Origin: a virus | Lineage: Duplodnaviria > Caudoviricetes | IMG/VR virus record: IMGVR_UViG_3300044259_000056 | Span: 10,261-74,260 of that record | Strand: one strand, 5' to 3' | DNA length: 64,000 nt | Shown here: one piece after another, positions 2,435 through 17,606 of the stretch | How positions within the stretch are numbered: position 1 is the stretch's first letter | How the letters are laid out: every line of letters begins with the position of its first letter | Notes under the pieces: model-generated | What the model saw: only the letters and a program-made list of their open reading frames with translations | Databases searched by the model: none | What the model was told of the DNA's origin: nothing | Program-made: the position numbers and the translations under genes

Positions 2435-4970
2435 GTGACAGATGTTAAAACTAAGAGGACTTATAGAAAGAAATCTTCTTATTGGGAGGAGAGAAAATCT
2501 TCAGTAAGTCCTCAGTCTATAGAAAAAGCCAGTAACATGGATATGTCTACCTCAAGGTTAAGGTTGGGTGAAATTGGTTCTACTGCACTTTCAACAATTA
2601 AGTTGTACGCAGATTGGAGAAAACCTTATGATCTAAAATGGCCTGAGTGCATTAGAACCTATAATGAAATGGAGTATGATGACGATGTAGCAACAGCATT
2701 GGATGCAAGTTACACATTCGTAGAAAGGGCATTTGTTGAACCAGAAGTAGTTTATAATAAAGAATCAGAAGTCTCTATTGAGGCAGCAAGATTTTTAAAG
2801 TGGTGCCTTAATAACATGGACGACGGTATGACATTACGCTCTGCTGTTCGTTCAGCTATCACTTTTAAAAAGTATGGTTTTAGTGTCCTAGAGAAGTGTT
2901 ATACTCAAGTTACTTCTGGTGAATATGCTGGGATGTATAAGTTGCAGAAGTTAGCAACTAGGCCACAAGAAACACTGAATAAAGCAAACCCATATGTGTA
3001 TTCAGATGATGGCAGGACAGTTATTGGTATTATTCAGTCTATAAATGCAGTATCATCTACAAATGCAATAATCCCTGCATCTATTGTTGGTGATAGGTTT
3101 TTACCAAGGAAAAAATTACTTATTTTTGGTTATAACTCCACAGATTCAAATCCTTTCGGTGTTTCTCCTTTAGCTAGTATATATCAAGATTGGAAAGAAA
3201 AAGTTCTTATATCAGACTATGAAGTTGTTGGTGTTAGTAAGGACTTGGGTGGTAAACTAAGAGCTGCCTCCCTTTAATAAAACTTCCTTAACTGCTGGAA
3301 ACCCCTAAAGCTTGATTGTTCATTTCATCTATGTTACATTAAGAATGAAATAAAACAATCGAGATGCAACAATGGGCAATCAGCAGCGAAGTTCTGCTGA
3401 TCCTTGGATGAGGATCATATGAAGATAGAAATAGAAAGTAGTGGATATTATATAACAGATTCTGGAGAGGTTTATAGCAGACGTGGTAATAAACTATGTC
3501 CTGTTCTTAACCATAAAGGATATTTGACGGTTAAAATATTTTACGAAAAGGGTAAATATAAGACTAAGTTTGTTCATAGACTAGTTGCAGAAGCTTTTAT
3601 TGAAAATCCTAATAATTTGGAAACAGTCAACCATAAAAATGGTGTAAAAACAGATAATACTAAAGACAATTTAGAATGGATGAGTAGATTAGACAACACC
3701 AAACATGCAGCAAATGTATTACAGGCTCAAAAAGGTGACAAAGCAACTAATTTGACAATAAACTCTGATATAGCTAGGGAAATTTGTAAACTACTAGAGA
3801 AAGATATGCGTAATATTGATATATCTGTTCTATTAAATGTCCCCAAAAATATTGTTAGAGATATCAGAATAAGAAAAACTTGGACTCATTTATCCAAAGA
3901 ATATAAGTTTTCTATTTCAAAACATGCAAGAAATGTTAAAACTTCTAGCAGAAAATGTTCAACGACTATCGAAAGCATAGGTTAAATGAGAGATAAATAG
4001 ATTATCTTTTATTATAACTAAAGAAGCAAGTAGAGTACAGCCAAGTGGTAGGTTGCCATAGTGGAATGGCTATGGTTATAAAACCCTTTAAATGGAAACA
4101 GGAAGCATCTCTTTGAGATGAAGATATAGTCTGATCTGCATGGAAACATGCAGCAGCTTGAATAAAGCGGGGAGGGATTAACGAACCCTCCTGAACATTA
4201 TGATGCCTGTCCTTGGTGTTCCAAAAGATATCATAAATAAAGCAGCAGCAAATCCCGGTGGCGAAGAAGCTAAATCCTTGTATGTATTAGAACAAAATTT
4301 AGCTAATCTTCATGCAGGGGAACAAGCATATATTATGCTACCATCTGATCCATTTGATAATACACAAGTAAAAGAATATTCTATAGAATTTAAAGGAATT
4401 TCAGGTAGCGGTAAACAGTTTGATACTGGAAAACTTATAGAACGTAGAACTAAGGCTATTTATAATAGACTTGGTGCAGGATTCTTAATAACAGGGGATT
4501 CTGGGTCTGGTTCTTATGCATTAAGTGATAATAAACAAACTTTCCATAGTCATACTATTGAACGTGATATTGACATTACTCTAGAAGTCCTTAATAAAGA
4601 ACTAGTTCCACAGTTGCTAGCTTTGAATGGAATATATCTTGAGGATAAAGATATGCCAAAGATAAAAGCTGGAACTGTTGGTGATCCTGATGTAGAAGCT
4701 AATTCTAAGATGATTCAGCGTGTAGTTAGTGTTGGTGCTGTTCCAATGGTTCCAGAAGTTATTAATGAGTTTTTAGAAAAACTTGGATTAAGTTACAGGC
4801 TACCTGTTGATATTATCTCGGATGAGAAAGCTTATCAAGACTTTGTTAGTAAATATCTTCCTGCAAATGTCTCAAGGGCAGGCGATGGGATGAGTAAACC
4901 GGGGAATGGTACATCAAACTCTGTAGCGTCAACAGATAATTCATCTTTAAATTTGGATAATGCCTCTTGA
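2435..4970 (+). CDS. Portal protein, spliced; exons 2435-3253 and 4203-4970 (~528 aa)
   Basis: Position between terL and protease; the join gives VSKDLGG|MPVLGVP; portal-like motifs (NPFGVSPL, GSYALS). Confidence 0.9.
3280..3385 (+). repeat. 106-bp block, 101/106 identical to 15465-15570
   Basis: Direct comparison (portal intron 5' core vs tape-measure intron 2 5' core). Confidence 0.92.
3419..3985 (+). CDS. Intron-encoded HNH homing endonuclease (HNH_3 / I-HmuI-like)
   Basis: VHRLVAEAF..VNHKNGVKTDN..NLEW; SD GAGGA before ATG 3419; C-terminal HTH-like module. Confidence 0.9.
   Translation: MKIEIESSGYYITDSGEVYSRRGNKLCPVLNHKGYLTVKIFYEKGKYKTKFVHRLVAEAFIENPNNLETVNHKNGVKTDNTKDNLEWMSRLDNTKHAANVLQAQKGDKATNLTINSDIAREICKLLEKDMRNIDISVLLNVPKNIVRDIRIRKTWTHLSKEYKFSISKHARNVKTSSRKCSTTIESIG
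3958..4136 (+). repeat. 179-bp block identical to 15181-15359
   Basis: Direct base-by-base comparison (portal intron vs tape-measure intron 1). Confidence 0.95.
4121..4202 (+). repeat. 82-bp block identical to 16439-16520
   Basis: Direct comparison (portal intron 3' end vs tape-measure intron 2 3' end). Confidence 0.95.
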
Positions 4971-5127
4971 TAACTTTTGTTTTATTGTTTTTCATATTAA
5001 AATACTTTAATAAATGTTGTATTAAATAACTACAAATTTATGTTAACTGTTGACTTATATTAAATTTTATTTTAAAATAAGTAATAGGAACCCTGCTAAC
5101 ATAACAGCAGATTATATTGGAGGTCTT

Positions 5128-5583
5128 TTGTTTAACAAAGATAAACTCCTTTCTCTATTCAAAACCTTTCTTGATGAAAACATCTCTGACCAACCTACTG
5201 TTGAAATCATAAAACAATTTGATGAAGAAAAGATGGAGGCAGTTGAGGTATTATACTGCCCACCAGACCAAGCAGACCTTCATCAAGAGGCAATGACAGA
5301 AGATGAAATCGTTAAGATGGTTGATAATCTTAATGCAGCTATTAAGAAAGGTAGAGTTAAAGGAAATATTGCTCATGCTGTAAATACAGATAAGATTTAT
5401 CCTGTAGAAGCTTGGGTAAATAAAGTAGCTTGTGATATTGGTGGTAAAACCATTCCAGCAGGAATGCCACTAATTAAAATGAAGTTTACTGATAGACAGC
5501 TTTGGGAAGAAAGGAAATCAGGAAAATTAAAAGGTGTATCAATGGGTGCTCGTGGAGAAAGAGTTGAGGTAAAGAATGATTAA
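5128..5583 (+). CDS. Prohead maturation protease (XkdF-like)
   Basis: GGAGG then TTG at 5128; DLHQE, NIAH and GVSMGARG motifs; located after portal. Confidence 0.75.
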   Translation: MFNKDKLLSLFKTFLDENISDQPTVEIIKQFDEEKMEAVEVLYCPPDQADLHQEAMTEDEIVKMVDNLNAAIKKGRVKGNIAHAVNTDKIYPVEAWVNKVACDIGGKTIPAGMPLIKMKFTDRQLWEERKSGKLKGVSMGARGERVEVKND

Positions 5584-6868
5584 AAATTACCTTCAAAACG
5601 TATCCTTTGATTTTGAGGAAAATGAAGAGAGCCTTGGCCCACATATTGCATACACACTTGAATTTCAGGGTGGTGCAGCATCTGGATACAATGATCCAAT
5701 TCTCCTAAAATCAAAGAAAACTGTTATTACCAGTGAGGTGATAAAAGGTCTAAAAGAGGTAGGAATAGACACCTCTAGTTTGGAGAAATCAATGTTTCAG
5801 AGTGATCTGCGTGAACAACTACAAAGTGCTATCAGGGAAAAAGCATTTTGTGATGAATATGATTGGTGTTGGGTTTGTGATTTTAACGATGAAATAGTTG
5901 TATTCTGTAGTGATGATGGCTTATATAGTGTTGCTTATGTCATTGAGGATAATTCTGTTAAAGTTGATAATATAGCTAATCCTGTTGTCCGTTTAATTGA
6001 CTATGTTGCTGTTGATGGTGAAGTAAAAGTTAGTGAAGAAATGGAAGACAAGCTAGAACAACAAATGATGGATATGTTGAATAAAGCTAACTCCCAACCA
6101 GACCTAAAAAAATTCATTCTTAAAGCTGTCACTAAGAAAGAAGGGAATGAAAATCTTACTGCTGATAAATATGCATATACTCCAGACAAAGAAAAAGTTT
6201 CTACTTGGAAATTGCGTATTGATACTGCTGCAAACACCAGTGCTGCCGTTGCTGCATTAGGAAAAGGATTCCGTGGAAATAAAGTTAAAATCCCATCAGC
6301 AGATTTACCTGCTGTTAAAAAGAAAGTCTCTACAGCTTATAAGAAATTTTATCCAGACAAAGAATTGCCAGAGATATTGAAATCAAAAACAGAGGTTCCA
6401 GCCTCTGCAAGTAAACTAGAAAAAGGAGCCTCCGTGGATTTACAAGAACTAATGAAGAGTAATGAGTTTGCTGAACTCTTGAAAGCTGAAATTGCAAAAG
6501 CAACTGCAAACGAAGCCAAAGAAAAAGAAGAACTTCAAAAAGCTTTGAATACTGAAAAAGAACGTATTGCTGCACTGGAAGCTAAAGAAGTTGAGCGTGT
6601 TGAGAAATCACATCGTGACATTCTTAAATCTTTCTCATCTTTTATTGCCGAAGATAAAACTGAAGCACTTGTAAAAGCTTTCATGAAAGATGCAGAGACT
6701 GCTCTTGTGGTAATTGAAGTTTTAGAAAAAGCTAACTCTGTCGTTGAACAGGTTAAGAAAGAATTCGGTGCTGAGGTTGGAGTTAACGTTAAAGTTGAAG
6801 ACTCTGCTAGCCTACAAGAGAAAATCATTGCTAAAGCTAAAGCAATGAAAGAAGCCCAATCTAAATAA
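5576..6868 (+). CDS. Capsid scaffolding / head assembly protein
   Basis: Located between protease and capsid genes; acidic N-terminus and long Ala/Lys/Glu coiled-coil C-terminus. Confidence 0.7.
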   Translation: MIKNYLQNVSFDFEENEESLGPHIAYTLEFQGGAASGYNDPILLKSKKTVITSEVIKGLKEVGIDTSSLEKSMFQSDLREQLQSAIREKAFCDEYDWCWVCDFNDEIVVFCSDDGLYSVAYVIEDNSVKVDNIANPVVRLIDYVAVDGEVKVSEEMEDKLEQQMMDMLNKANSQPDLKKFILKAVTKKEGNENLTADKYAYTPDKEKVSTWKLRIDTAANTSAAVAALGKGFRGNKVKIPSADLPAVKKKVSTAYKKFYPDKELPEILKSKTEVPASASKLEKGASVDLQELMKSNEFAELLKAEIAKATANEAKEKEELQKALNTEKERIAALEAKEVERVEKSHRDILKSFSSFIAEDKTEALVKAFMKDAETALVVIEVLEKANSVVEQVKKEFGAEVGVNVKVEDSASLQEKIIAKAKAMKEAQSK

Positions 6869-6886
6869 TAAAAAGGGAAAATAAAA

Positions 6887-7267
6887 ATGGCAATTGCTAC
6901 ATACACTTCTTCTGATCGTTACACCGATCTTGTTCTGGGTCAGGTTGACGCAACTGACTTGGGTTATTCTTTTGAGACTGTAAACGTCACCAAAACAGCC
7001 ACCACTCGTATTGGTTCTTTGCTTGCAGGTGCTACTGAAATTGCAAACGCTGCTGCTGCAACGGCTAATGGTGTGATTGTATGGGTTGACAGTTATAATG
7101 GTCTGGATGATTTTGCAGTCGGCGCAACTGTTCCGTGTGTTGTTGCTAAACGTGCAGTGACTCTTAACCAGAATAAACTTGTATTTACCGATGGTGCAGT
7201 TAACGCAACTGCAATTACCGCTTTGAATGCTTTTGGCATCAAAGTTACTTCTAAAATTGTTAGCTAA
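6887..7267 (+). CDS. Head decoration protein
   Basis: 126 aa, Ala/Thr/Val-rich, immediately before the major capsid gene, highly-expressed codon style. Confidence 0.7.
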   Translation: MAIATYTSSDRYTDLVLGQVDATDLGYSFETVNVTKTATTRIGSLLAGATEIANAAAATANGVIVWVDSYNGLDDFAVGATVPCVVAKRAVTLNQNKLVFTDGAVNATAITALNAFGIKVTSKIVS

Positions 7268-7280
7268 TTGAGGGATTAAG

Positions 7281-8279
7281 ATGCCAGTTGCTTTTACTGA
7301 TAAACTATTGGACTTTACACCACTGTATGAGTTCATGACTACCCCTGTTCCTAAAACTGTCACTAATCTTGACATGTTTGAAAAGAACTATAATATGACT
7401 GATTTGGCCTCTGTTGGTCGTTTGTCACATGCAGTAGGTACTATTCCTGCACAAGCTCGTGGTGGCGAGCGTAATTTCATGATTTCTAATCCAGCTACCA
7501 TGAAAGCATGGCAGATTCCATTCTTCCCACTGGATAAAAATATCAAACCTACTGATGTTCAGAATTTCCTGAACATGATTAATGACCGAGATACCCCAGA
7601 AACTGCCCAAACTCTGGTGACTAAGTTTATGCAGCGTATGCGTAATGCTCATGCAACTACTAAGGAAAAGATTCGTACTTCTGCTATTAAGGGCACAAAC
7701 TTCCTAGGTGGCGGTGTAGGTGTTTCAGTCAACTATTATACTGAGTGGGGCTTGACTCAACAGACAGCTAACTTGGATTTTAGTTCTCCTACTGTAGACC
7801 CAGCAAGTGTTCTAGAAGCTAATGCTCGTGCATATATTATCGATAATAAAGGTGATGATTCTGACTTCACAGAAGTTGTGGCTCTTTGTGGACGTAAATA
7901 CTTCCAAGCACTGATCGATAACGCATATGTTCGCACTGCCTATTCTTATTATATGGATGGTGTTCAGCCTCTGCGTGATCGTGTTTCTGGTAATGTTGAT
8001 GCACGTTCTTTTGAATACAAAGGTATCCGTTATATAGAAGATATCTATGGTAATATTGAGACTAATAAAGCATATATCTTCCCTGTAGGTATTGATGGTA
8101 TGTTCCATGAGTTTTATGCTCCTGCTGATACTATTGCCGAAGCAAATACTGAAGCTAAGGAAGAATATTTCTGGCTTGACTTGGAACGTCGCACTGCATC
8201 TATTCAGTCTGAATTTGGGCTGTTGGCTGTGAACACACGTCCTGAGCTGGTTGTATCTTCTACTGGTACTAACCTGTAA
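7281..8279 (+). CDS. Major capsid protein (lambda gpE-like family)
   Basis: 332 aa; IPFFPLD, FEYKGIRYIE and AVNTRPELVV motifs; followed by a terminator. Confidence 0.88.
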   Translation: MPVAFTDKLLDFTPLYEFMTTPVPKTVTNLDMFEKNYNMTDLASVGRLSHAVGTIPAQARGGERNFMISNPATMKAWQIPFFPLDKNIKPTDVQNFLNMINDRDTPETAQTLVTKFMQRMRNAHATTKEKIRTSAIKGTNFLGGGVGVSVNYYTEWGLTQQTANLDFSSPTVDPASVLEANARAYIIDNKGDDSDFTEVVALCGRKYFQALIDNAYVRTAYSYYMDGVQPLRDRVSGNVDARSFEYKGIRYIEDIYGNIETNKAYIFPVGIDGMFHEFYAPADTIAEANTEAKEEYFWLDLERRTASIQSEFGLLAVNTRPELVVSSTGTNL

Positions 8280-8297
8280 GATTTAAGAGTAGATTAA

Positions 8298-8324
8298 GGG
8301 CTGGGCTTATTGCCCGGCCTTTTT
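8298..8324 (+). terminator. Rho-independent terminator after the capsid gene
   Basis: GGGCTGGGC-TTATT-GCCCGGCC followed by a T-run. Confidence 0.85.
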
Positions 8325-8343
8325 CATATGGAGAAAGCACACA

Positions 8344-8871
8344 ATGTCAGAAAGAAAATATTATCTTAGTTTTGCAGAATTGCTTATTGATATTGATAAA
8401 ATGAATGTAGGATTAGATCTAAAAAAGACATTTACTTTACCAAATTTCTTTTTAGCAACAAAAGATGGAAAGATTCATCAAGCACATGACCTAAATAGCT
8501 TTATCAATATTCTTACCTCTGTCCTAGGTGTTGATATAATCCCTTGGTCTGGTGTAGACGCTGTTCCTCTGAGTCTTGTTTATAATGATTATTCTTCTGA
8601 ATTTAAAATTGAAGAAATTGTAGAGCAAGAGGTTGAAGTTGTCAAGGACAAACCACTGACTGACAGTCTTCCACAAACAGAGACTATTGAAACTCAAGTT
8701 ATTGAGACTGATAAGGTAGAAAAGTCATTAGAGGATATGACAGCAAAAGAGATTATTAAGTTACTAACAGATGCAGGTGAAGTTATCCCTAAGATTATAA
8801 ATAAAACCCAATTAATAAAACTTGTAAAAACAAAATTTGGGGAAAAGTATGGCAACACAGCAACAGATTGA
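8344..8871 (+). CDS. Hypothetical head-module protein with C-terminal HeH/Rho-N-like motif
   Basis: LEDMTAKEIIKLL...NKTQLIKLV; SD GGAG. Confidence 0.6.
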   Translation: MSERKYYLSFAELLIDIDKMNVGLDLKKTFTLPNFFLATKDGKIHQAHDLNSFINILTSVLGVDIIPWSGVDAVPLSLVYNDYSSEFKIEEIVEQEVEVVKDKPLTDSLPQTETIETQVIETDKVEKSLEDMTAKEIIKLLTDAGEVIPKIINKTQLIKLVKTKFGEKYGNTATD

Positions 8872-9364
8872 TAAAGTCAGAGCTTATGCTTTCTATCCCA
8901 CACAACAGAAAGTTTCTGATGCAATAATTGAAGCTAACATTGAGAAATGGGAAGCTGTTATCTCTCCTGATGTAGTGAATAGAGAAGGTATTATCCTTTA
9001 TAATGCAACATTAGATACATTGAGATATCTTGTGTATACTGATCCTTCTGAGTCTGCTGGATATAGATTAAGAGAGAAAGTTAATAAGGTAGAAAGGGAA
9101 GTTGAAACTCAATCTAACTATGTTGGTAAATGGGAAAAAATCTTAGAAGATTATCTCAATGGCACACTCATTATCCCAGAATACTCTGTTTCTGGTAAAA
9201 AAGTATTTGTTGGGGGTGTCAGTGCAGAAGAGATTAACCGTGTAAATAATGATATAGATTCCGTAAATGGATTAGGTAGATATACAGGGATAAATTCAAG
9301 AGTTTCAAGTAATACAAGAGAACGTGTCTTCCGTAGAATGGCTAATAAATATGAATCTTTTTAG
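8849..9364 (+). CDS. Putative head-tail adaptor
   Basis: Synteny; ATG at 8849 overlaps the end of the previous gene. Confidence 0.55.
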   Translation: MATQQQIDKVRAYAFYPTQQKVSDAIIEANIEKWEAVISPDVVNREGIILYNATLDTLRYLVYTDPSESAGYRLREKVNKVEREVETQSNYVGKWEKILEDYLNGTLIIPEYSVSGKKVFVGGVSAEEINRVNNDIDSVNGLGRYTGINSRVSSNTRERVFRRMANKYESF

Positions 9365-9372
9365 AGGTAAAT

Positions 9373-9597
9373 ATGTTACAACCAATTGTTATTGCTAATC
9401 GTGTTATTGCAAAAGAATTTATTGATGAGAAAACAGGAAAAGCTTTCTCTTTTTACAAAGAAGATGAATACAAAGTTAAGGGTAATTTTGAATCAACAGC
9501 CACAAAACTACCTGAACTTGTTGCAGATTATAACAAACTTATTTCAGCGTTGGAAGAAGTAGGGATTATAATCCCTGATGTGAAGGAAGAAGATTAA
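9373..9597 (+). CDS. Small virion protein, head-fibre-like C-terminal motif
   Basis: LPELVADYNKLISALEEVGII; SD GAGG. Confidence 0.5.
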   Translation: MLQPIVIANRVIAKEFIDEKTGKAFSFYKEDEYKVKGNFESTATKLPELVADYNKLISALEEVGIIIPDVKEED

Positions 9598-9609
9598 TCT
9601 AGAGGTGCT

Positions 9610-10077
9610 ATGCTTTCTGTCTCTATGAAAAGTGAAGTGGACTTATCTTTCTATGACAGGTTGATGGAGAGGTCATATAGACTAGAATCAATTGAGGTTG
9701 AATCAGGTTATCTTGACACAAAAATTCATAAAACTTCAGGTTTACCAATAGGGACACTCGCAGCAATACATAACAATGGTAGCATAAAAGCAAATATACC
9801 TTCCAGACCGTTCATGATATTAGCGGCATACTATTGGGCAAGAGAGGCTAATGTTTTCTCAAAAGCCTTTGTAGACTTCTGTTTAAAAAGAAAGTCCATT
9901 AATGAGTCTTTTAATCCTGTAGGGCGAAAAGGGATGAGGTCTGTTCAAACAGCCATCATGAGTCAACAATTTGTTCCATTAGCAACTTCAACAATTGAAA
10001 AGAAAGGCTCATCAACAATCTTGTTTGACACAGGAGAGTTAATAAACTCAGTTAAATGGCGTGTGGGTATGAAGTAA
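9610..10077 (+). CDS. Neck / tail-completion protein
   Basis: IAAIHNNG..IPSRPFM, PLATSTIEKKG..LFDTGELINSV motifs typical of myophage neck proteins. Confidence 0.7.
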   Translation: MLSVSMKSEVDLSFYDRLMERSYRLESIEVESGYLDTKIHKTSGLPIGTLAAIHNNGSIKANIPSRPFMILAAYYWAREANVFSKAFVDFCLKRKSINESFNPVGRKGMRSVQTAIMSQQFVPLATSTIEKKGSSTILFDTGELINSVKWRVGMK

Positions 10078-10083
10078 CAACAG

Positions 10084-10112
10084 TTGCTCTTAAAATAGAA
10101 TTATGTTATCAT
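10084..10112 (+). promoter_or_regulatory. Sigma70-like promoter (extended -10)
   Basis: TTGCTC-17 nt-TATCAT with TG at -15/-14. Confidence 0.55.
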
Positions 10113-10150
10113 ATATTTAGGGAGGTAATATATTACTTTCAGATTTTTCT

Positions 10151-10549
10151 TTGATAAATCTCAAAGAATATGAAGCACGTCATAGAGAGTTTATAAAAAA
10201 TTCTGGAGATATCTTTGAAAATGGATATTCATCTTATGTAGTTTATGAAGCTTTCACAATTCAAGCGTGTTCTCTCCAACCAGAAACAGGTTATACATTA
10301 AACACTATACCGGAAGGGTATAGGACAAAAGGTGTCTACTCTTTCTGGACAACAACACCAGTCAGGACGTTAGAACAAGGAACTGACCAGCTCTCAGATC
10401 AAATAAAAATAAATGGACAATGGTTCTCTATCCTAAGATCACAACCTTGGGTAGAATCTGATTTTTTACCTCACTATGATTGTATAGCAGTAAGAGAAGA
10501 CCAAAATAATTCCCCCACTCAATCACCAGAAGGTGGCAACTTTGGCTAA
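10151..10549 (+). CDS. Head-closure protein
   Basis: SLQP..LNTIPEGYR..YSFWT..DQIKING.WF..W..HY motifs; synteny. Confidence 0.65.
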   Translation: MINLKEYEARHREFIKNSGDIFENGYSSYVVYEAFTIQACSLQPETGYTLNTIPEGYRTKGVYSFWTTTPVRTLEQGTDQLSDQIKINGQWFSILRSQPWVESDFLPHYDCIAVREDQNNSPTQSPEGGNFG

Positions 10550-11123
10550 TCCTACATTTCAAAATATGTTAGCTGCTGAACAATTCTTCATGACTACGAT
10601 AGGGTCTTTTTTAAAAGAATTAACAGGATTAAAAGTCTTTATTACAAATAAACCTTGGCCTTCAGGATCTGAACCTATGATTGGTATCAGAATACTTAGT
10701 TATGATAAATCAGGTTGGGGGAGTAAGTACGGTTATGACGAGACAAATAATCAGCAAATAGTTGAGATGACTTCAATTCCAACAGTTGAATTTCTCGCGG
10801 TAAGAGGGAATCCAGTATCTACTCTTAATTATGTCAATAATGCATTAATGTCTTTTAATGACTATTGTTATAATAAACTAACTTTAAATGGTATTGGATT
10901 TCTTTCAGCAACCTCTGTCTCTGAGGCTGATACAGTATTTGACCAAGCACAGACTGAGTTTAGAGCTAGGATGTTAGGTGACTTTACTTTACGACTTAGA
11001 ATTTTTGACCAAGCTGTGAATCTTAAAGTTGAAAAAGTGAGTTTAACACAAAATTTCATAGAGGAAGGTGCGAACACTCCCTCAATATCTTATCAATCGG
11101 TTTTTGAAAACCTTGTAGAATAG
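10533..11123 (+). CDS. Tail terminator / neck-terminator protein
   Basis: Directly upstream of the sheath gene; size and synteny. Confidence 0.6.
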   Translation: MATLANPTFQNMLAAEQFFMTTIGSFLKELTGLKVFITNKPWPSGSEPMIGIRILSYDKSGWGSKYGYDETNNQQIVEMTSIPTVEFLAVRGNPVSTLNYVNNALMSFNDYCYNKLTLNGIGFLSATSVSEADTVFDQAQTEFRARMLGDFTLRLRIFDQAVNLKVEKVSLTQNFIEEGANTPSISYQSVFENLVE

Positions 11124-11132
11124 GAGTATTAA

Positions 11133-12515
11133 ATGGCAACATTTCGTGATAAGGTAGTTGATGTCACGTTAGTATATGGGAGTGGTATTACAGAAGTCGC
11201 TCGTTTTGACATTCCATTGATTTTAGCTACCCACAATAGTTCAGCAAATCTTGTAGATACTTTTACTTCAGCAGATGCAATTTTACAAGCAGGTTATACA
11301 GAGTCTTCTCCTGTCTATAAGATGGCAACTCTTTTGTTTACAGGCCTAGCTGCACCAGAATATATTTTGGTCGGTAAAAGAACACTTACAGACTACTCAG
11401 TTACATTTACTGCTGTAAATAGTAGCATTTATACAGTAACACTAAAAGATGCATCAAGCTCTAAAACTTTCTCTTACACATCAGATTCAAGTGCTACTGT
11501 AGCAGAGATTGCAGCAGGATTGCAAGGACTTATTTCAGCAGACGGTGTTTGGAGTACTAAAATTACTGCAACAGTTGTTGGTTCTAATACATTAAATCTT
11601 GCACCTGTTAGTGGACAACATGTAGATGTTGCAGTAGGCAGTAATAGTGTCTTGTCTAGAAATACATCCCAGTCTGTTACTGATGCAATAACAGCTATTG
11701 CAACTGCCAATAATACTTTCTTTTGGGTGGTTAGTGATAGCCATACAAATGCTGATATTACTGCATTAGCGGCATATGCAGAAGCTCATGATAAAATTTA
11801 TACCTTCTCTACCCAAGATGTTAATGTCAGAGATAAAGTTTCAGGTAACATTCTTGAAACATTAAATGGATTGTCATATAGAAATACTTGGTGTTCCCTT
11901 TGGAAATCAGATGCAGATATTTCATACCCAGAGGCTTCTGCTGTAGGTCAGATTGCAGCATCCCAGCCGGGAACCACAACTATGCACGGCAAGTCTTTAG
12001 TAGGTATTACACCAGAAAAATTAACAGCAACACAAGAGAGTAATATTGTCTCCCTAAATGGTAATATTTATCGTAGAGAATATGGAATTAATTTCTATCG
12101 TGATGGTAGAACAGTTAGCGGACAGTTTGTAGATGCAATTCATCAGGCACTTTATACAAAAGCAAAAATGGAAGAGTCTATTTATAATCTCTTTAGAGAA
12201 CAAAGCCAACTCCTTTCAGGTGTCCGTAACACTCAAGCAGGCCGTGATCAACTTCGTCAAAGAATTACGGCTGATGTGATTCAACCTCAGATTTCAAATG
12301 GTTCTATTGTTAACGAGATTGATACCTCCTCTGATACTGGTTTGAAGAAAGACTTACGGCCTATGCTGACTATTCCATCTCGTGCTGATGCAACAACTGA
12401 GTCAGTTAATGAACGTCTTATTGATGGTATTGTTCTTGAGTATGTTTATGCAGGTTTCTTGCATTACGCGAAAGTTCGTATCAATGTTTTAACTGACCGT
12501 ACAGCTACAGCATAA
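11133..12515 (+). CDS. Tail sheath protein (DUF3383-like)
   Basis: 460 aa; FDIPLIL, GKSLVGI, DGRTVSGQFVD motifs; C-terminal YVYAGFLHYAKV. Confidence 0.88.
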   Translation: MATFRDKVVDVTLVYGSGITEVARFDIPLILATHNSSANLVDTFTSADAILQAGYTESSPVYKMATLLFTGLAAPEYILVGKRTLTDYSVTFTAVNSSIYTVTLKDASSSKTFSYTSDSSATVAEIAAGLQGLISADGVWSTKITATVVGSNTLNLAPVSGQHVDVAVGSNSVLSRNTSQSVTDAITAIATANNTFFWVVSDSHTNADITALAAYAEAHDKIYTFSTQDVNVRDKVSGNILETLNGLSYRNTWCSLWKSDADISYPEASAVGQIAASQPGTTTMHGKSLVGITPEKLTATQESNIVSLNGNIYRREYGINFYRDGRTVSGQFVDAIHQALYTKAKMEESIYNLFREQSQLLSGVRNTQAGRDQLRQRITADVIQPQISNGSIVNEIDTSSDTGLKKDLRPMLTIPSRADATTESVNERLIDGIVLEYVYAGFLHYAKVRINVLTDRTATA

Positions 12516-12529
12516 TAGGAGTATAAAGA

Positions 12530-13000
12530 ATGGAACAAATGTTAACAGGGTTTAGTGCATTTGACCCTAAAAATGTGCGAGTCTTACTTGGAGGTTATGA
12601 GCCTTCTGGTTATGCAACAGACAGTATGATTAACATTACTCTAGCAAATGACATTGTTCTCCCCTATGGTGGTTTAGATGGTGATGTCTCACTTGCTGTT
12701 AACCGTAACCATTTAGGAACAATGACAATTCATTTACAGAATACAAGCCCAAGTAATAAAGTTTTAAGTACTTTCATTGCACAGAGTTATAGTACTGGTA
12801 TTGTAGCTTTCCCAGTATTGTTCTCAGAACCAAGTTCAGGCAGTGAATTTATGACTATTGGTTGGGTGCAACAGCAACCTGAACATGCCATTACTAATCA
12901 GATTGGTACAATGCCTTGGGTTATTGGCCTGAAAGATGCAAGAGTTAGCTTTGGTACTACTGCTGCATCACTAAATGCCATTCAAGGTTTAGCACTTTAA
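12530..13000 (+). CDS. Tail tube protein (DUF3277-like)
   Basis: FDPKNVRVLLGG, GLDGDVSLAVN, LQNTSPSN motifs; follows the sheath gene. Confidence 0.82.
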   Translation: MEQMLTGFSAFDPKNVRVLLGGYEPSGYATDSMINITLANDIVLPYGGLDGDVSLAVNRNHLGTMTIHLQNTSPSNKVLSTFIAQSYSTGIVAFPVLFSEPSSGSEFMTIGWVQQQPEHAITNQIGTMPWVIGLKDARVSFGTTAASLNAIQGLAL

Positions 13001-13016
13001 ATATCGCTGTGTGCGA

Positions 13017-13039
13017 GGGCAAGGATGCCCAATCTTTTT
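13017..13039 (+). terminator. Hairpin / probable terminator after the tube gene
   Basis: GGGC-AAGGAT-GCCC followed by AATCTTTTT. Confidence 0.55.
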
Positions 13040-13094
13040 AAAAGGAACTAACACACAAGACTTTAATCTCTCATAAACTATAAGGATAGCACAC

Positions 13095-13601
13095 ATGAGC
13101 GAACAGAATCAAAATATTATTTCCAATATTGCACAAAAAATTGCCCCTGAGACTCGTTATAAAACTAAATATAAAGATATTCAAGGTATTGAGAAAGAGG
13201 CTGAGTTTCAGATCATGCATTTGCCGCCTTCTGTCATCTATAAGAAACTTCCAAAGATTGGTCGTTTGATTGGTGTTCCAGCAGGCATGATTATGGCAGC
13301 AGCTAATGAAGGTTTTGCAGAAGCATTACCAGCAGCGATGTTGCAATTATTTAACACCTTTGATGAAGAAAATTTAGAACTGTTTATTAAAGAACTTTTA
13401 GATAGTGTTTATCTTCAGGGGACAAAAGTTACGGCAGACTTTGATGGGATTTTTATGAATGCCCCACACTTACCACTCCAACTTGCTGTAAAAGTCCTAG
13501 AGGTGGCTTATACCCCTTTTTTCAGCCTAGATTTCAAAGAAATGCTACCGACATTGGCGAAAATAAGTCAGGTTCAACAAATGAATTCAGCCCAGCTATA
13601 A
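13095..13601 (+). CDS. Tail assembly chaperone (gpG-like)
   Basis: Located between tube and tape measure genes; contains a slippery site. Confidence 0.8.
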   Translation: MSEQNQNIISNIAQKIAPETRYKTKYKDIQGIEKEAEFQIMHLPPSVIYKKLPKIGRLIGVPAGMIMAAANEGFAEALPAAMLQLFNTFDEENLELFIKELLDSVYLQGTKVTADFDGIFMNAPHLPLQLAVKVLEVAYTPFFSLDFKEMLPTLAKISQVQQMNSAQL

Positions 13602-13858
13602 AATTAGCAATTGAGAAAAGTTGTTCTAGTTCTAGCCTTGATTGGTTTGAATACATGTTATATAGGATTGTCTCAAAAACCTCAGAAACAAGGATATCTC
13701 TTGATCAATATGACTTAAGATATATGTTTTCACTTTATGAGGCAATTGACCTTGAAGACTACATAGAACTTCTTAGAATGAAAGATGCAGAGGCTAAAGC
13801 CCTTGCAGAAAGACAACAAAAAAGTAAAGGGAATGGTATGGGATTTCCTTTAAGGTAA
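13095..13858 (+). CDS. Tail assembly chaperone -1 frameshift product (gpGT-like)
   Basis: CCCTTTTTTC at 13514-13523; the -1 frame is open for 44 codons from 13523 and continues in frame into ORF 13655-13858. Confidence 0.8.
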
Positions 13859-13865
13859 ATAATAA

Positions 13866-13897
13866 GCCCTGCCATTGCGCAGGGCATTTTTGTTTTT
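13866..13897 (+). terminator. Rho-independent terminator
   Basis: GCCCTGC-CATTGC-GCAGGGC followed by ATTTTTGTTTTT. Confidence 0.8.
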
Positions 13898-13933
13898 ATG
13901 GTTAGGTATCAACAAATCTCTACGGAGGGTGTA

Positions 13934-16900
13934 TTGGCAATTAATTTTGATGCTGCCATTATTAAAAATAAAGTGGTATATACAACAGACCTCTCATCAC
14001 TTAAAAAAGTAATGGCGGATATTAGGAAGGTTCAACAGTCAGCATCTAAATCTGTTTTAGCTTCCTCAACAATAAAACAATCAAGACAACAAGCTGAACA
14101 GACAAAACGTTGGGCATCAGAAACAATGGATGCACATGTTAAAGCTATGAACGAAGTAAGAAAATCAAAGGCATCTCAATTTCAGAAGTCATCTCAAGAT
14201 TATTTCAATGACTTATTTGGCATAGGTAAGAAAACAAAATCTGCCAGAGAGTCTGGTTATGCTTTTTTAGAACAGTTTCAGGCACAAGATGCCGCAGCAA
14301 ATGAAATAAGGAAAAGGCAAAAAGAATCTTTGAGAAGACAGACAGCAGACCAGAAGAAAATAGATGAAGCTAATATTAAAGCAACAGAAGATAGACTAAG
14401 AAGAAAAGATGTAGCGAGTTCTAAGCAATCTTTTTTTGGTTTTGAATTAGGAAAAACAAGACTCGGTGTTGATGATATGCGAGCCTATACAACACAAATG
14501 AGAAACTTATCTCAGGAGTATGTATCAGGGAGTATGTCTGTCAGACAATATAATGAATCAACACGACAATTACTTTCTACTGCAAGACAACAGAGTAAAG
14601 AGTCATTAACACTTAAAGAAAGGTTAATGAGTATTCGTGGAGAAATGGTTCTCTTTGGTGTAACTGCTGGATTTGTTATTAAAGATGTTGTAGATACAGG
14701 AAAACAATTTCAACAATTAAATTTATCTTTTGATACAGCATTTGGTAAAGATAAAGGCGAGGCAATGGATTTTGTTCGCTCAGAGGCTGATAGATTAGGT
14801 ATGAGTGTCCTTGGTGTTAGTAAGAACTATGCTCGGTTAGCTTATGGTGCTAAGTTAATGGGCATGTCACAATCAGATGTTCAGATGGGATTCTCTGGGA
14901 TATCTGAAGCAGCAACTGCTTGGGGTCTATCAAATGAGCAAGTTCAAGGGACATTTAAAGCATTTACAGATATGATCTCAAAAGGCACAGTCCAGTTAGA
15001 GGAGCTTAATGTTAGGTTCCTGAAACTTCTTTAATTGTCGGGGAAATCTTGAAAGGTATTGACTACTCTCTCTACATAGTGATATAGTAGAAAAACTCTT
15101 GGTAATGCAAGAGCTATAGTAAAAACGTCAATAATAGAGATAATCCGCAGGTAAGGTTCTTTATTTCATAAAGAACAAACTTCAACGACTATCGAAAGCA
15201 TAGGTTAAATGAGAGATAAATAGATTATCTTTTATTATAACTAAAGAAGCAAGTAGAGTACAGCCAAGTGGTAGGTTGCCATAGTGGAATGGCTATGGTT
15301 ATAAAACCCTTTAAATGGAAACAGGAAGCATCTCTTTGAGATGAAGATATAGTCTGATCCTCATATGAGAATATGAGCAGACACAAGGAAGTGTCTGTTT
15401 GTGTTTAACGAACACAAAAAACATCGGTGAAAACAACAACTCGGTTATACTATTAGCTGAGTATAAACTTCCTTAACTGCTGGAAACCCCTAAAGCTTGA
15501 TTGTTTATTTTCTATATGTTATATTAAGAATGAAATAAAACAATCGAGATGCAACAATGGGCAATCAGCAACTAAGCATCTCTCCAGAAAAGAAAGTAAG
15601 GAGAAAATATGGAATATGAAAATCTAAGCAAAAACTATAAAGTGACATCTTGTGGTTTAGTCTTTTCTTTAAGAAGAAATAAATATCTGAAGCAGTCAAT
15701 ATTTGGTGGGTATAATATAGTAAATATTGGCAAGAAGAACTATTTTGTTCATAGACTAGTTGCTATAACTTATATACCAAATCCAAGTAATCTTCCTTGT
15801 GTTAATCATAAAGATGGAAATAAGCTAAATAACCATGTAGATAACCTTGAGTGGTGCACAAGTGGATACAATCAATGTCATGCATATTTAACTGGACTAA
15901 AAAGGTTACCAAAAGGTGAAATGAATGGAAGAAGCGTTTTAACAGATTCTGAAGTTCTAAGTGTCTACGATGATCTTATGTCTGGGGCAAGAGTTAAAGA
16001 TATTTCAGAGATCTATGGTGTAGGAAAAAGCACTATAATGTCTATTAAGAAAAAAGAGTCATGGCAGCACTTATTAAAAGATAAACCAGATATAAAAATA
16101 AAGAAAAAGACACAAACCTTATCTGAAAATACTGTTATATGGATTTGTAAACAGTTGTCAGAAAATAAGACAGTTAAATGGATTTTTGATAACTGTCATA
16201 AGAATGTTACAATTAATCAAATACAAGATATAAAGAGAAGGCATTGTTTTTGTAAGATAAGTAAAGATTTCATATGGTGATGAAAGCTCAACGACTATCG
16301 AAAGCATAACTTAGGTCTTAGCCTGAGTGAGTAAGCAAGTAGAGTAGCGCCAAGTGGTAGGTGATTAAAGTGGAATGACTTTAATTATAAAACCCTTTAA
16401 AGCAAAATGGGAAGAGGTGTATAACAGATTATGCACTTAAGATATAGTCTGATCTGCATGGAAACATGCAGCAGCTTGAATAAAGCGGGGAGGGATTAAC
16501 GAACCCTCCTGAACATTATGGATCGTATGCCGGATGCAATGGCTGTGTTTGCTAAAGCATTAGACCCAGAGTCTTATGCAAAAAATCCACAGAAAGCCAT
16601 TGAAAAAATGCAAGAGACTATTAAGAAAGGTAATCTCAAGTCTCTTGAAACATTACCTAAAGTATTTAAAGTATTCCATGAAATATATGGCCCACAAGCT
16701 GAAAAAGCTATGTATGGTGTCACTCAACAACAGAACAGATTCAATAATACATTAAATGATTTCAAAAATATAATCTTTCAGTCTGGTTTAGCAAATGCAA
16801 CAGTTAGGTTATTTGGTGCACTAAACAATTTCTTGAAAGGTTCTAAGCCCTTAGCTGCATTTTTAGGTGGTATTGCACAAGGTTTTGCAGATTTACTTTA

Positions 16901-17606
16901 CTATGTAGAACTTGGTGAAGCATATTTCCTAGATTTTGCTGTTGCAATGGGTGTTTTGAATTATGAGACAGGAAAATGGAATAAAGATGTCCTTAATGCA
17001 TTTGCTGAGGTTGGTGAAGCTGCTGGCATCCTTTTTGGTTTGAAATTAATTAAATGGTTAATGGGAACTGTTACAAGTTTTAATAAATTAGGTTCAACTG
17101 TTGGTAAGTTAGGGGCTAAGTTTGGTATAGCAAGTGGTTTTGCTGTGTCACTTTTAGGGGCTATTGAAGGTATTGCTAAATTTGCAGGAAAAACTTTGCT
17201 TATTGGAATTGCATTAGATTTCTTTTCTAAAATTGGTGATCTTGAAAAAGAGGCTCAAGATAAGAATAAAAATCTTGGTGAGCTACTTTATGAGAAATCA
17301 CAACAAAAAGAGAAAGAACGTATTGCAAGAGGTGGCGCGGATGTAAGTAATTGGTGGGAAAATGTAAAAAGCTTTTTTACCCCGAATAGTGGTACTCTAA
17401 CATCTCCATCCCCTTGGGAGAACACTATGTCCTCTAATTTTAATCCCTTCCTAATGGGCATGGCAGGTGTCTCTGCACCAAAAGAAGCTTATCAACCTCC
17501 TGTTGAAATTAATCTTAACTTTAAAGGGGAAGGTCTTAAAGACTTCTGGGATGTTCAGATGAGTAATCAAGCCTCGAGTCTATATGACTTCCAGTTAAAT
17601 AAATAG
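13934..17606 (+). CDS. Tape measure protein, three exons: 13934-15006, 15430-15445, 16521-17606 (~724 aa)
   Basis: Spliced product reads KGTVQLEEL-KQQLG-DRMPDAM, the conserved tape-measure motif; TTG start after GGAGG (track start 13898 is in the same frame). Confidence 0.92.
15007..15429 (+). mobile_element. Group I intron 1 of the tape-measure gene, ORF-less, 423 nt
   Basis: P1: exon GAGCU with IGS GGUUC (U-G at the site); core AAUUGUCGGGGAA...GAUAAUCCGCAG; P7 AACGACUAUC / AAGAUAUAGUC; P9.0 CUGAU/AUCGG then UG end. Confidence 0.92.
15430..15445 (+). other. 16-nt micro-exon of the tape-measure gene (A AAA CAA CAA CTC GGT)
   Basis: Completes the Leu codon CT|A and encodes KQQLG; its last 7 nt pair with the intron 2 IGS. 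Confidence 0.9.
15446..16520 (+). mobile_element. Group I intron 2 of the tape-measure gene, carrying an HNH ORF
   Basis: P1: ACUCGGU with GCUGAGU; IA2-like core; P7 strands at ~16290 and ~16440; ends AUUAUG before GAT CGT ATG. Confidence 0.93.
15609..16280 (+). CDS. Intron-encoded HNH homing endonuclease with two C-terminal HTH-like modules
   Basis: FVHRLVAITYIPNP..VNHKDGNKLNNHVDNLEW; SD AAGGAG. Confidence 0.92.
   Translation: MEYENLSKNYKVTSCGLVFSLRRNKYLKQSIFGGYNIVNIGKKNYFVHRLVAITYIPNPSNLPCVNHKDGNKLNNHVDNLEWCTSGYNQCHAYLTGLKRLPKGEMNGRSVLTDSEVLSVYDDLMSGARVKDISEIYGVGKSTIMSIKKKESWQHLLKDKPDIKIKKKTQTLSENTVIWICKQLSENKTVKWIFDNCHKNVTINQIQDIKRRHCFCKISKDFIW

Follow-up and report, generated by a model that had tools for sequence, protein, structure and literature searches.

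A group I intron in a phage portal gene is a mosaic of the two introns of the tape-measure gene

Recombination between the group I introns of td, nrdB and sunY in bacteriophage T4 has reportedly been observed. The DNA-polymerase introns of the HMU-phages (SPO1 family) are said to have similar ribozymes and highly divergent ORFs. The orf142 gene of phage Twort is reported to carry three group I introns; we know of no mosaic of identical intron tracts in its description. Mosaic omega (21S rRNA) introns together with their endonuclease genes have been described in yeast mitochondria (Wu and Hao, 2014, G3, PMC4059233). Here, we describe a phage locus with three related, predicted group I introns of the phage type: the portal gene contains one and the tape-measure (TMP) gene the other two.

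The source phage contig (IMG/VR record, linear, short-read metagenome assembly) has a length of 74 kb and is about 50% complete, which suggests a genome of approximately 150 kb. A stretch of 64 kb, referred to as the window, was analysed. Closest matches of the portal protein were found in Stephanstirmvirinae-like myoviruses. A 16-nt exon parts TMP intron 1 (T1) from TMP intron 2 (T2). In the gene calls of the source contig, the portal and tape-measure genes are entered as separate ORFs. The terL gene contains a fourth intron (659-917), which shares 73% identity with the orthologous intron of contig L111. As the direct-repeat listing of the window contained no long identical block between the terL intron and the other three, high identity is specific to the three exchanging introns.

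When the portal exons were joined, their product aligned with the portal protein of Klebsiella phage KP13-16 (58% identity over 524 aa) without a gap at the junction. Likewise, the product of the joined TMP exons aligned ungapped at both junctions with the tape-measure protein of Pseudomonas phage Ppu-503; the micro-exon is retained, with ...VQLEELKQQLGDRMP... in the joined translation facing ...VSMEELRQQLGERL... in Ppu-503 without a gap. Removal of all three introns hence restores intact conserved reading frames, and since the homologues used are intron-less, these alignments prove the splice junctions (Table 1). Both the portal 5′ exon and the 5′ exon of TMP intron 2 end in GGU.

Table 1. 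Exons, introns, identity blocks and associated elements of the portal and tape-measure (TMP) genes (positions in the window).
Feature	Positions	Strand	Basis or assignment
Portal exon 1, ends ...KDLGG	2435..3253	+	Pfam Portal_Mu, profile positions 2-150
Portal group I intron, 949 nt, mosaic	3254..4202	+	Junctions from protein alignment
Block A: P3 5′ strand, P4, P5 extension, P4 3′ strand	3280..3385	+	T2-like
Portal-specific P6 stem, 7 bp (3392-3398 with 3947-3953), closes HNH loop	3392..3953	+	Read from sequence
Portal-intron HNH homing-endonuclease gene, 188 aa	3419..3985	+	Pfam HNH_3 (PF13392)
Block B: J6/7, P7 5′ strand, P7.1, P7.2, P3 3′ strand, P8, J8/7-P7 3′ strand	3958..4136	+	
Block C: J8/7-P7 3′ strand, P9, P9.1, P9.2, 3′ tail to terminal G	4121..4202	+	
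Portal exon 2, starts MPVLGVPKD	4203..4970	+	Pfam Portal_Mu, profile positions 177-324; alignment
TMP exon 1, ends ...GTVQLEE + CT of Leu codon	13898..15006	+	Pfam TMP_3
TMP intron 1, 423 nt, no ORF	15007..15429	+	RF00028 match; junctions from protein alignment
Micro-exon, 16 nt, third base of Leu codon + KQQLG	15430..15445	+	Protein alignment
TMP intron 2, 1075 nt, contains HNH gene 15609-16280	15446..16520	+	RF00028 partial; HNH_3
TMP exon 3, starts DRMPDAMAVF	16521..17606	+	Protein alignment

Folding of the introns was assessed with the Rfam model RF00028. TMP intron 1 matched with 60.9 bits (gathering score 50), and partial matches under this cut-off were obtained for the portal intron (3293-3439 at 22.6 bits and 3908-4153 at 39.3 bits) and for TMP intron 2 (34.2 bits), both of which are split by an HNH gene of 550-670 nt. 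Each intron has a P1 pairing of its own: (i) in the portal intron, 3247-3253 pairs with the guide 3266-3272, placing U3253-G3266 at the 5′ splice site; (ii) in TMP intron 1, 15001-15007 pairs with 15014-20, with the wobble U15006-G15015; (iii) in TMP intron 2, 15440-15446 pairs with 15455-15461 at all seven positions, with the wobble U15445-G15456. The terminal intron base is G in all three (4202, 15429 and 16520), and the J8/7-P7′ sequence GAAGAUAUAGUC agrees with the Rfam consensus. P1, P3, P4, P7 and P8 of the portal chimera were found to be paired in a script check, the last four of them fully; pairings in P6, P9 and P9.2 were derived by hand from the sequence. Because the helices that bridge the blocks, P3 and P7, are fully paired, splicing would be expected, and the chimeric portal intron should accordingly be proficient in it as far as can be predicted from its fold.

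The HNH gene product of the portal intron scored 29.7 bits and that of TMP intron 2 26.3 bits with Pfam PF13392 (HNH_3; cut-off 24.8), and the two proteins are only 36% identical to each other. The last 28 nt and the stop codon of the portal HNH gene fall within block B. Over 68 nt at its 3′ end, this gene shares 84% identity with the HNH gene in the portal intron of contig L110. The portal P6 region (3392-3953) had no identity block in common with T1 or T2.

Comparison of the introns with each other revealed three identity blocks. Block A matches TMP intron 2 (15465-15570) at 101 of 106 positions (95.3%), and the five mismatches (3321, 3326, 3327, 3329 and 3337) all lie in the distal P5 hairpin. 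This identity with TMP intron 2 begins just past the P1 3′ strand; in the P1 loop, 11 of 14 nt are alike. Block B is identical to TMP intron 1 (15181-15359) at all 179 positions, as compared to only 73% identity with TMP intron 2 in its 109-nt core and indels elsewhere in the block. Block C is identical to TMP intron 2 (16439-16520) at all 82 positions, and the last identical base is the terminal G, right at the 3′ splice site. The exact blocks B and C overlap in the J8/7-P7′ 16-mer AAGATATAGTCTGATC, of which there are exactly three copies in the window (at 4121, 15344 and 16439). The 20-nt J6/7-P7 element CAACGACTATCGAAAGCATA is exact in all three introns and the P4 3′ strand mostly so; the block junctions fall on motifs identical in the three introns. 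Selection was considered as a source of the identity and was rejected, given that loops and hairpin tips are also identical and that the functional equivalent in T2 differs by 27%.

When the 3′ halves of all three introns were aligned, 61 consecutive informative sites within the intron were T1-like and the next 32 were T2-like, a partition that cannot be due to chance. In the 5′ half, 71 informative sites are T2-like vs 8 T1-like, the latter located mostly outside block A. The order of segments in the portal intron is thus: (i) a site-specific P1; (ii) T2-like P3-P5; (iii) P6 and an HNH gene of its own; (iv) T1-like J6/7-P8; (v) T2-like P7′-P9.2. An initial annotation of this DNA had recognised the three blocks and the mosaic assembled from both TMP introns, the switch point in the common P7 3′ strand, the individual guide sequences and the divergence of the two HNH ORFs, all of which was borne out. 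Its attribution of the pattern to recombination or gene conversion also stands, there being no other reasonable cause. Position 3280, at which its coordinates begin, is the start of the repeat but not of the intron, whose P1 and guide lie upstream of the shared block.

Related introns were searched for in viral contigs and phage genomes. The portal gene of the distant relative L111 is interrupted by an intron at the identical codon junction (KDMGG|), and this intron likewise has the guide sequence GCCUCCCUUUAA; in L110, the 3′ splice junction of the portal intron is shared and an orthologous HNH gene is present. An intron at the portal site is therefore older than the exchange, and the portal intron appears from these orthologues to be an old resident of which core segments were overwritten or exchanged. 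[quoted passage not shown] In this phiR1-37 intron, a T2-type block B is contiguous with a C-type 3′ end; as these form a natural unit there, the junction between T1-type block B and block C in the portal intron is derived. Seven other viral contigs contain the block C module at 85-95% identity; a 34-mer of this block is exact in seven other viral contigs, and the J6/7 20-mer in more than 89. Outside the phage genome, no block had a match better than 86-95%, as compared to 100% within it. Block B of contig L123 is a mixture of T1-type and phiR1-37-type features. A pattern search for the block B subfamily yielded only phiR1-37, one of its relatives and a 1.6-kb metagenome contig. The halves of the portal intron, T1 and T2 were all about 60-75% globally identical to the portal introns of L110, L111 and L113 (the latter compared without the 5′ half), values which do not discriminate between them. 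Close sister phages were not detected by megablast against 50,697 phage records, which returned short intron-core matches only. A search for related loci with portal exon 2 and TMP exon 3 gave no match in viral contigs, and TMP exon 3 had no near-length homologue besides its own sequence. Similarly, a T1/portal-specific 25-mer had no further exact match in viral contigs, nor was an orthologue of TMP intron 1 found there in pattern and exon searches.

A second, independent assembly (Logan, k=31, SRR35908198), in which repeats are left unresolved and which may share its sample with JGI 3300044475, bears on whether the repeats are real. Its contigs cover positions 4173-15210, 15541-16468 and 16491 onward of the window, and five contig ends reach into the repeats by exactly 30 nt, counted from the boundaries at 4202, 15181, 15570, 16439 and 16520, as true exact repeats would give. 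The repeats are therefore present in the reads, which contradicts the assembly collapse that the initial annotation had named as refuting its reading. This comparison covers 30 nt at the edges of the blocks, and 100% identity derived from short reads could mask one or two interior differences (e.g. by bubble popping). That the assembler collapsed or mis-joined intron copies and that the true portal intron is not mosaic is in our view extremely improbable. The contig is indeed linear, about 50% complete and derived from short metagenome reads, the repeats of 82-179 nt are close in size to the k-mers and reads from which assemblies of this kind are built, and in an exact look-up the portal HNH protein was found on JGI contigs only and on no Logan contig, which is likely due to a different gene call on a short repeat-bounded contig. 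However, a collapse may erase a few SNPs but cannot make a T1-like tract that is 27% plus indels away from T2, and the artefact requires two to three mis-joins at overlaps of 16-21 nt, each returning to the correct exon. Every other linkage of the blocks disrupts both essential genes; the sole one available puts the TMP micro-exon into the portal gene.

Non-allelic gene conversion between the resident introns, with crossovers in the core motifs common to all three, is probably the origin of the mosaic. During recombination-dependent replication or repair, the shared core motifs would let non-allelic introns pair, and tracts would be copied from intron to intron, either through gene conversion or when synthesis-dependent repair switches its template. 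The portal intron would thereby have kept its own P1/guide and P6/HNH, while its P3-P5 and P7′-P9.2 came to match T2 (95% and 100%) and its J6/7-P8 came to match T1 (100%). Such an exchange would be recent, and for block B a transfer from T1 to the portal intron is slightly favoured. The initial annotation had gone further and suggested that the portal intron was newly made from ribozyme modules of the TMP introns, a new guide and a new nuclease. A T2 identity that starts right past P1 and stops at the 3′ splice site, like that of a copied ribozyme, the similar P1 loop and the shared GGU at the end of the 5′ exons are in line with this suggestion. It did not hold up against the insertion site and guide present in L111 and the 3′ junction and HNH gene present in L110, and we regard it as very unlikely. 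Somewhat less improbable, yet still unlikely, is an exchange between genomes, in which the tracts were acquired in a co-infection, either through homing accompanied by co-conversion or through recombination with the introns of a related phage. The partner could have been such a co-infecting relative instead of copies in the same genome: the intron family is widespread in phages, as judged from the occurrence of the block C 34-mer and the J6/7 20-mer; the phiR1-37 intron resembles the 3′ half of TMP intron 2; the HNH 3′ end of L110 (84% nt) is better conserved than the portal exon (60% aa); and block B of L123 combines features of two types. On the other hand, the partners of each identical tract reside in one genome at 100%, above any external match, and an outside donor would have had to supply the same sequence to two loci.

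Conversion between resident introns may even be a continuing process. We tentatively propose, as a possibility rather than an expectation, that the three introns form a standing concerted-evolution network in which templates are repeatedly switched between non-allelic cores at shared motifs of 16-21 nt, either when HNH cuts or nicks are repaired or in the course of recombination-dependent replication. This would homogenise ribozyme domains between genes and leave P1 and the P6/nuclease module specific to each locus. A decaying ribozyme in an essential gene could be rescued from a paralogue, and the introns would be built-in recombination hot spots flanking the head/tail-tube gene block. Judging by T4, deletion of the DNA between the repeats would be a plausible risk. 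Intron repeats of this kind can also fragment or mislead phage assemblies and gene calls.

Group I introns of one phage genome may trade ribozyme domains at conserved core motifs while a coherent fold is kept. The parts that travel are P3-P5, J6/7-P8 and P7′-P9.2, and those bound to the site are P1/guide and P6 with the nuclease gene. This has a bearing on the persistence of mobile introns and on the separate evolution of ribozyme and endonuclease.

As in T4, non-allelic group I introns of one genome probably recombine here at short core elements. In T4, hybrid ribozymes are reported to be still able to splice, and the DNA lying between the introns can be lost in such events. The T4 hybrids are laboratory deletion or exon-shuffling mutants, whereas the mosaic described here is found in sequence assembled from an environmental sample; it also differs from the T4 cases in being a non-reciprocal exchange among three introns that has left every exon intact. 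In addition, the introns reside in late structural genes and not, as in T4, in genes of nucleotide metabolism. The yeast omega intron is similar in that regions of one intron differ in origin, which is attributed to gene conversion, and in that intron and endonuclease gene have separate histories. There, however, conversion is allelic, at one site, and occurs between strains or species after horizontal transfer, whereas different sites of one genome are concerned here. Like in the SPO1 family, the ribozyme parts are far more similar than the embedded HNH genes; those introns are orthologous across phages, whereas the ones studied here are paralogous, occupy different sites in one phage and share tracts of 100% identity. 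With Twort, this phage has in common several group I introns per gene and in several genes, while two of its introns are only 16 nt apart. The portal intron is thus a well-founded case from nature of a type of event that is already known, the swapping of intron parts by recombination, which had earlier been demonstrated mainly with laboratory mutants of T4.

The window comprises bases 10261-74260 of a linear 74,260-nt IMG/VR viral contig with a completeness of about 50% (CheckV). At the protein level its portal shares 58% identity with the counterpart in Klebsiella phage KP13-16 (Stephanstirmvirinae, 137 kb); this kinship, taken together with the completeness value, indicates that the source phage is an uncultured myovirus with a genome of roughly 140-150 kb.

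Splice sites of the introns in the portal and tape-measure (TMP) genes were set by scripted exon joining and alignment to intron-less homologues. The joined portal sequence (...VVGVSKDLGG/MPVLGVPKD...) aligned without a gap to KP13-16, as did the joined tape-measure protein (...GTVQLEEL/KQQLG/DRMPDAMAVF...) to Pseudomonas phage Ppu-503. In all three introns a U-G wobble in P1 marks the 5' splice site, and the last base is G. Rfam matched one group I intron in full, at 14997-15377 (60.9 bits), and only parts of the portal intron and of TMP intron 2, each of which is split by an HNH gene. The two HNH_3 proteins are only 36% identical, in agreement with the divergence claimed in the initial annotation. 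The micro-exon lies directly 3' of the terminal G of TMP intron 1 and supplies the 5' exon half of P1 for TMP intron 2; with its residues joined, the tape-measure protein is gapless against intron-less tape-measure proteins.

Coordinates of introns, exons and portal-intron domains in the window (T1, T2: TMP introns 1 and 2)
Feature	Position	Description	Affinity or basis
Portal intron	3254-4202	949 nt	exon-joining alignment
P1/guide sequence	3247-3253 paired with 3266-3272		site-specific
Block A	3280-3385	P3 5' strand, P4, P5 extension, P4 3' strand	T2-like
P6 stem	3392-3398 paired with 3947-3953	encloses HNH gene	portal-specific
Block B	3958-4136	J6/7, P7 5' strand, P7.1, P7.2, P3 3' strand, P8, J8/7-P7'	T1-like
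Block C	4121-4202	P7', P9, P9.1, P9.2, tail to terminal G	T2-like
HNH_3 gene, portal intron	3419-3985
TMP intron 1	15007-15429	423 nt, no ORF	exon-joining alignment
Micro-exon	15430-15445	16 nt, AAAACAACAACTCGGT	between the two group I introns of the tape-measure gene
TMP intron 2	15446-16520	1075 nt	exon-joining alignment
HNH_3 gene, TMP intron 2	15609-16280
terL exon 1	566-658	ends ...FYGG
terL intron	659-917	group I, no ORF	just before Walker A motif of large terminase
terL exon 2	from 918	begins AAGGGKS...
P9.2 hairpins	4166-4191; 15397-15419; about 893-909	stems seemingly compensatory	by eye

Repeat search and BLAST reproduced exactly the coordinates and counts of the three identity blocks described in the initial annotation. 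Block A matches TMP intron 2 (15465-15570) at 101 of 106 positions, the five mismatches being clustered at 3321-3337 in the distal P5 hairpin, while block B is identical to TMP intron 1 (15181-15359; 179/179) and block C to TMP intron 2 (16439-16520; 82/82). The exact blocks B and C overlap in the 16-mer AAGATATAGTCTGATC, which occurs in the window only at 4121, 15344 and 16439; a second motif common to all three introns, CAACGACTATCGAAAGCATA, is found only at 3960, 15183 and 16289. When the 3' halves were aligned three-way, 61 consecutive informative sites were T1-like and the following 32 T2-like. The block junctions coincide with motifs identical in all three introns; identity to TMP intron 2 does not pass the intron ends and leaves out P1, and the nuclease modules are untouched. 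Both helices that bridge blocks of the chimera, P3 (A to B) and P7 (B to C), are entirely Watson-Crick paired.

Assembly collapse, which according to the initial annotation would refute the mosaic, was checked by locating the same genes on contigs of the Logan assembly of run SRR35908198. This k=31 graph without repeat resolution is independent of the JGI assembly; the samples behind the two may be the same. Logan contigs map at 100% to 4173-15210 (11,038 nt), 15541-16468 (928 nt) and 16491 onward, and all their mapped ends lie exactly 30 nt inside the repeat boundaries 4202, 15181, 15570, 16439 and 16520. As exact repeats produce such ends in a k=31 graph, the reads hold a second sequence entering block B at 15181 and likewise a second one, differing in the base just before the block, that enters block C at 16439. 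If the blocks were linked in the sole alternative way, the portal gene would contain the TMP micro-exon and the tape-measure protein would lack KQQLG. These results make collapse or mis-joining very unlikely, and the repeats are present in the reads, although a rare SNP within the fully identical block interiors could have been erased by the assembler.

Relatives with a split portal gene were found by length-restricted protein searches. A 91-kb contig of SRR6996007 (L111) carries a 309-nt intron without ORF at the same portal junction (KDMGG/LPLLEVP), with the same guide sequence, GCCUCCCUUUAA. Locus GCA_013565635.1 shares the portal 3' junction G/ATGCCTGT and is 84% identical over 68 nt at the HNH 3' end; the 3' half of its ribozyme is short and unlike the one here. 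In a third locus (L113), the portal intron apparently lies one codon upstream (sequence read by eye). Because L111 keeps site and guide and the second locus keeps 3' junction and HNH, the site, guide sequence and nuclease of the portal intron are old. What is unusual in this genome is a ribozyme core that matches both tape-measure introns at 95-100%. The mosaic is confirmed and its recombinational reading well supported, but the proposal of a new intron assembled from modules is not supported.

The terL intron served as internal control. It has no long identical block in common with the other three, sharing only the P9.2 loop motif UUAACGAA, and is 73% identical over 302 nt to its L111 orthologue; extreme identity is limited to the three exchanging introns. 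Rfam did not report the terL intron at E<=1 and scored the orthologue at 54.8 bits. The loop UUAACGA(A/C) is kept in all four introns and in many related ones (loci L114-L120); it may make a tertiary contact that is conserved in this subfamily of phage introns.

Over 217 nt, TMP intron 2 is 84% identical to the DNA-polymerase intron of Yersinia phage phiR1-37, in which a T2-type block B is contiguous with a C-type 3' end. Because of this arrangement TMP intron 2 seems to represent a coherent lineage, and the joining of T1-type B to C in the portal intron is derived, which slightly favours conversion from TMP intron 1 into the portal intron. Since the searches yielded no TMP intron 1 orthologue, the reverse direction is possible. 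The block C module recurs widely: seven other viral contigs contain exact copies of its 34-nt P9-P9.1 core, and the changes in its P9.2 stem look compensatory by eye. Outside the genome no block has a match better than 86-95%, compared with 100% within it. An intron fragment in OGVK01007896.1 combines T1/portal-type P7.1-P7.2 flanks with a phiR1-37-type hairpin, which hints that patchwise exchange in this region may be common in the subfamily.

The mosaic is best explained by non-allelic gene conversion between resident introns, or by template switching between them in repair synthesis, with heteroduplex or switch points that would fall within the J6/7-P7 and J8/7-P7' core motifs; exchange via a co-infecting relative is possible. 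Since blocks of 82 and 179 nt show no differences and block A shows five in 106 nt, more than one event is suggested, the latest probably very recent.

Other phage structural genes contain introns too, and there are further tape-measure genes that HNH introns split. At the EEL site occupied here by TMP intron 1, Vibrio phage vB_VpaM_R16F (OP793884.1, 2906-4036) also carries an HNH intron; its tape-measure gene, annotated as two CDS with an HNH gene between, is interrupted after ...AEEL by a group I-like intron, which seems to have gone unannotated in the deposited genome. The annotation of phiR1-37 (AJ972879.2, about 2385-2716) divides the family B DNA polymerase into g167 and g164, with the tiny ORFs g166 and g165 between them, and a relative has the same intron with an endonuclease-like ORF.

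The mosaic is a natural and well-supported example of a process already known, and no new kind of element. T4 introns reportedly recombine at conserved core elements, yielding hybrid introns and deletions (Hall, Liu and Shub 1989; Bryk and Belfort 1990). The SPO1-family phages likewise combine similar ribozymes with divergent ORFs. A further parallel is found in yeast mitochondria, where gene conversion gave rise to mosaic group I introns and endonuclease genes (PMC4059233).
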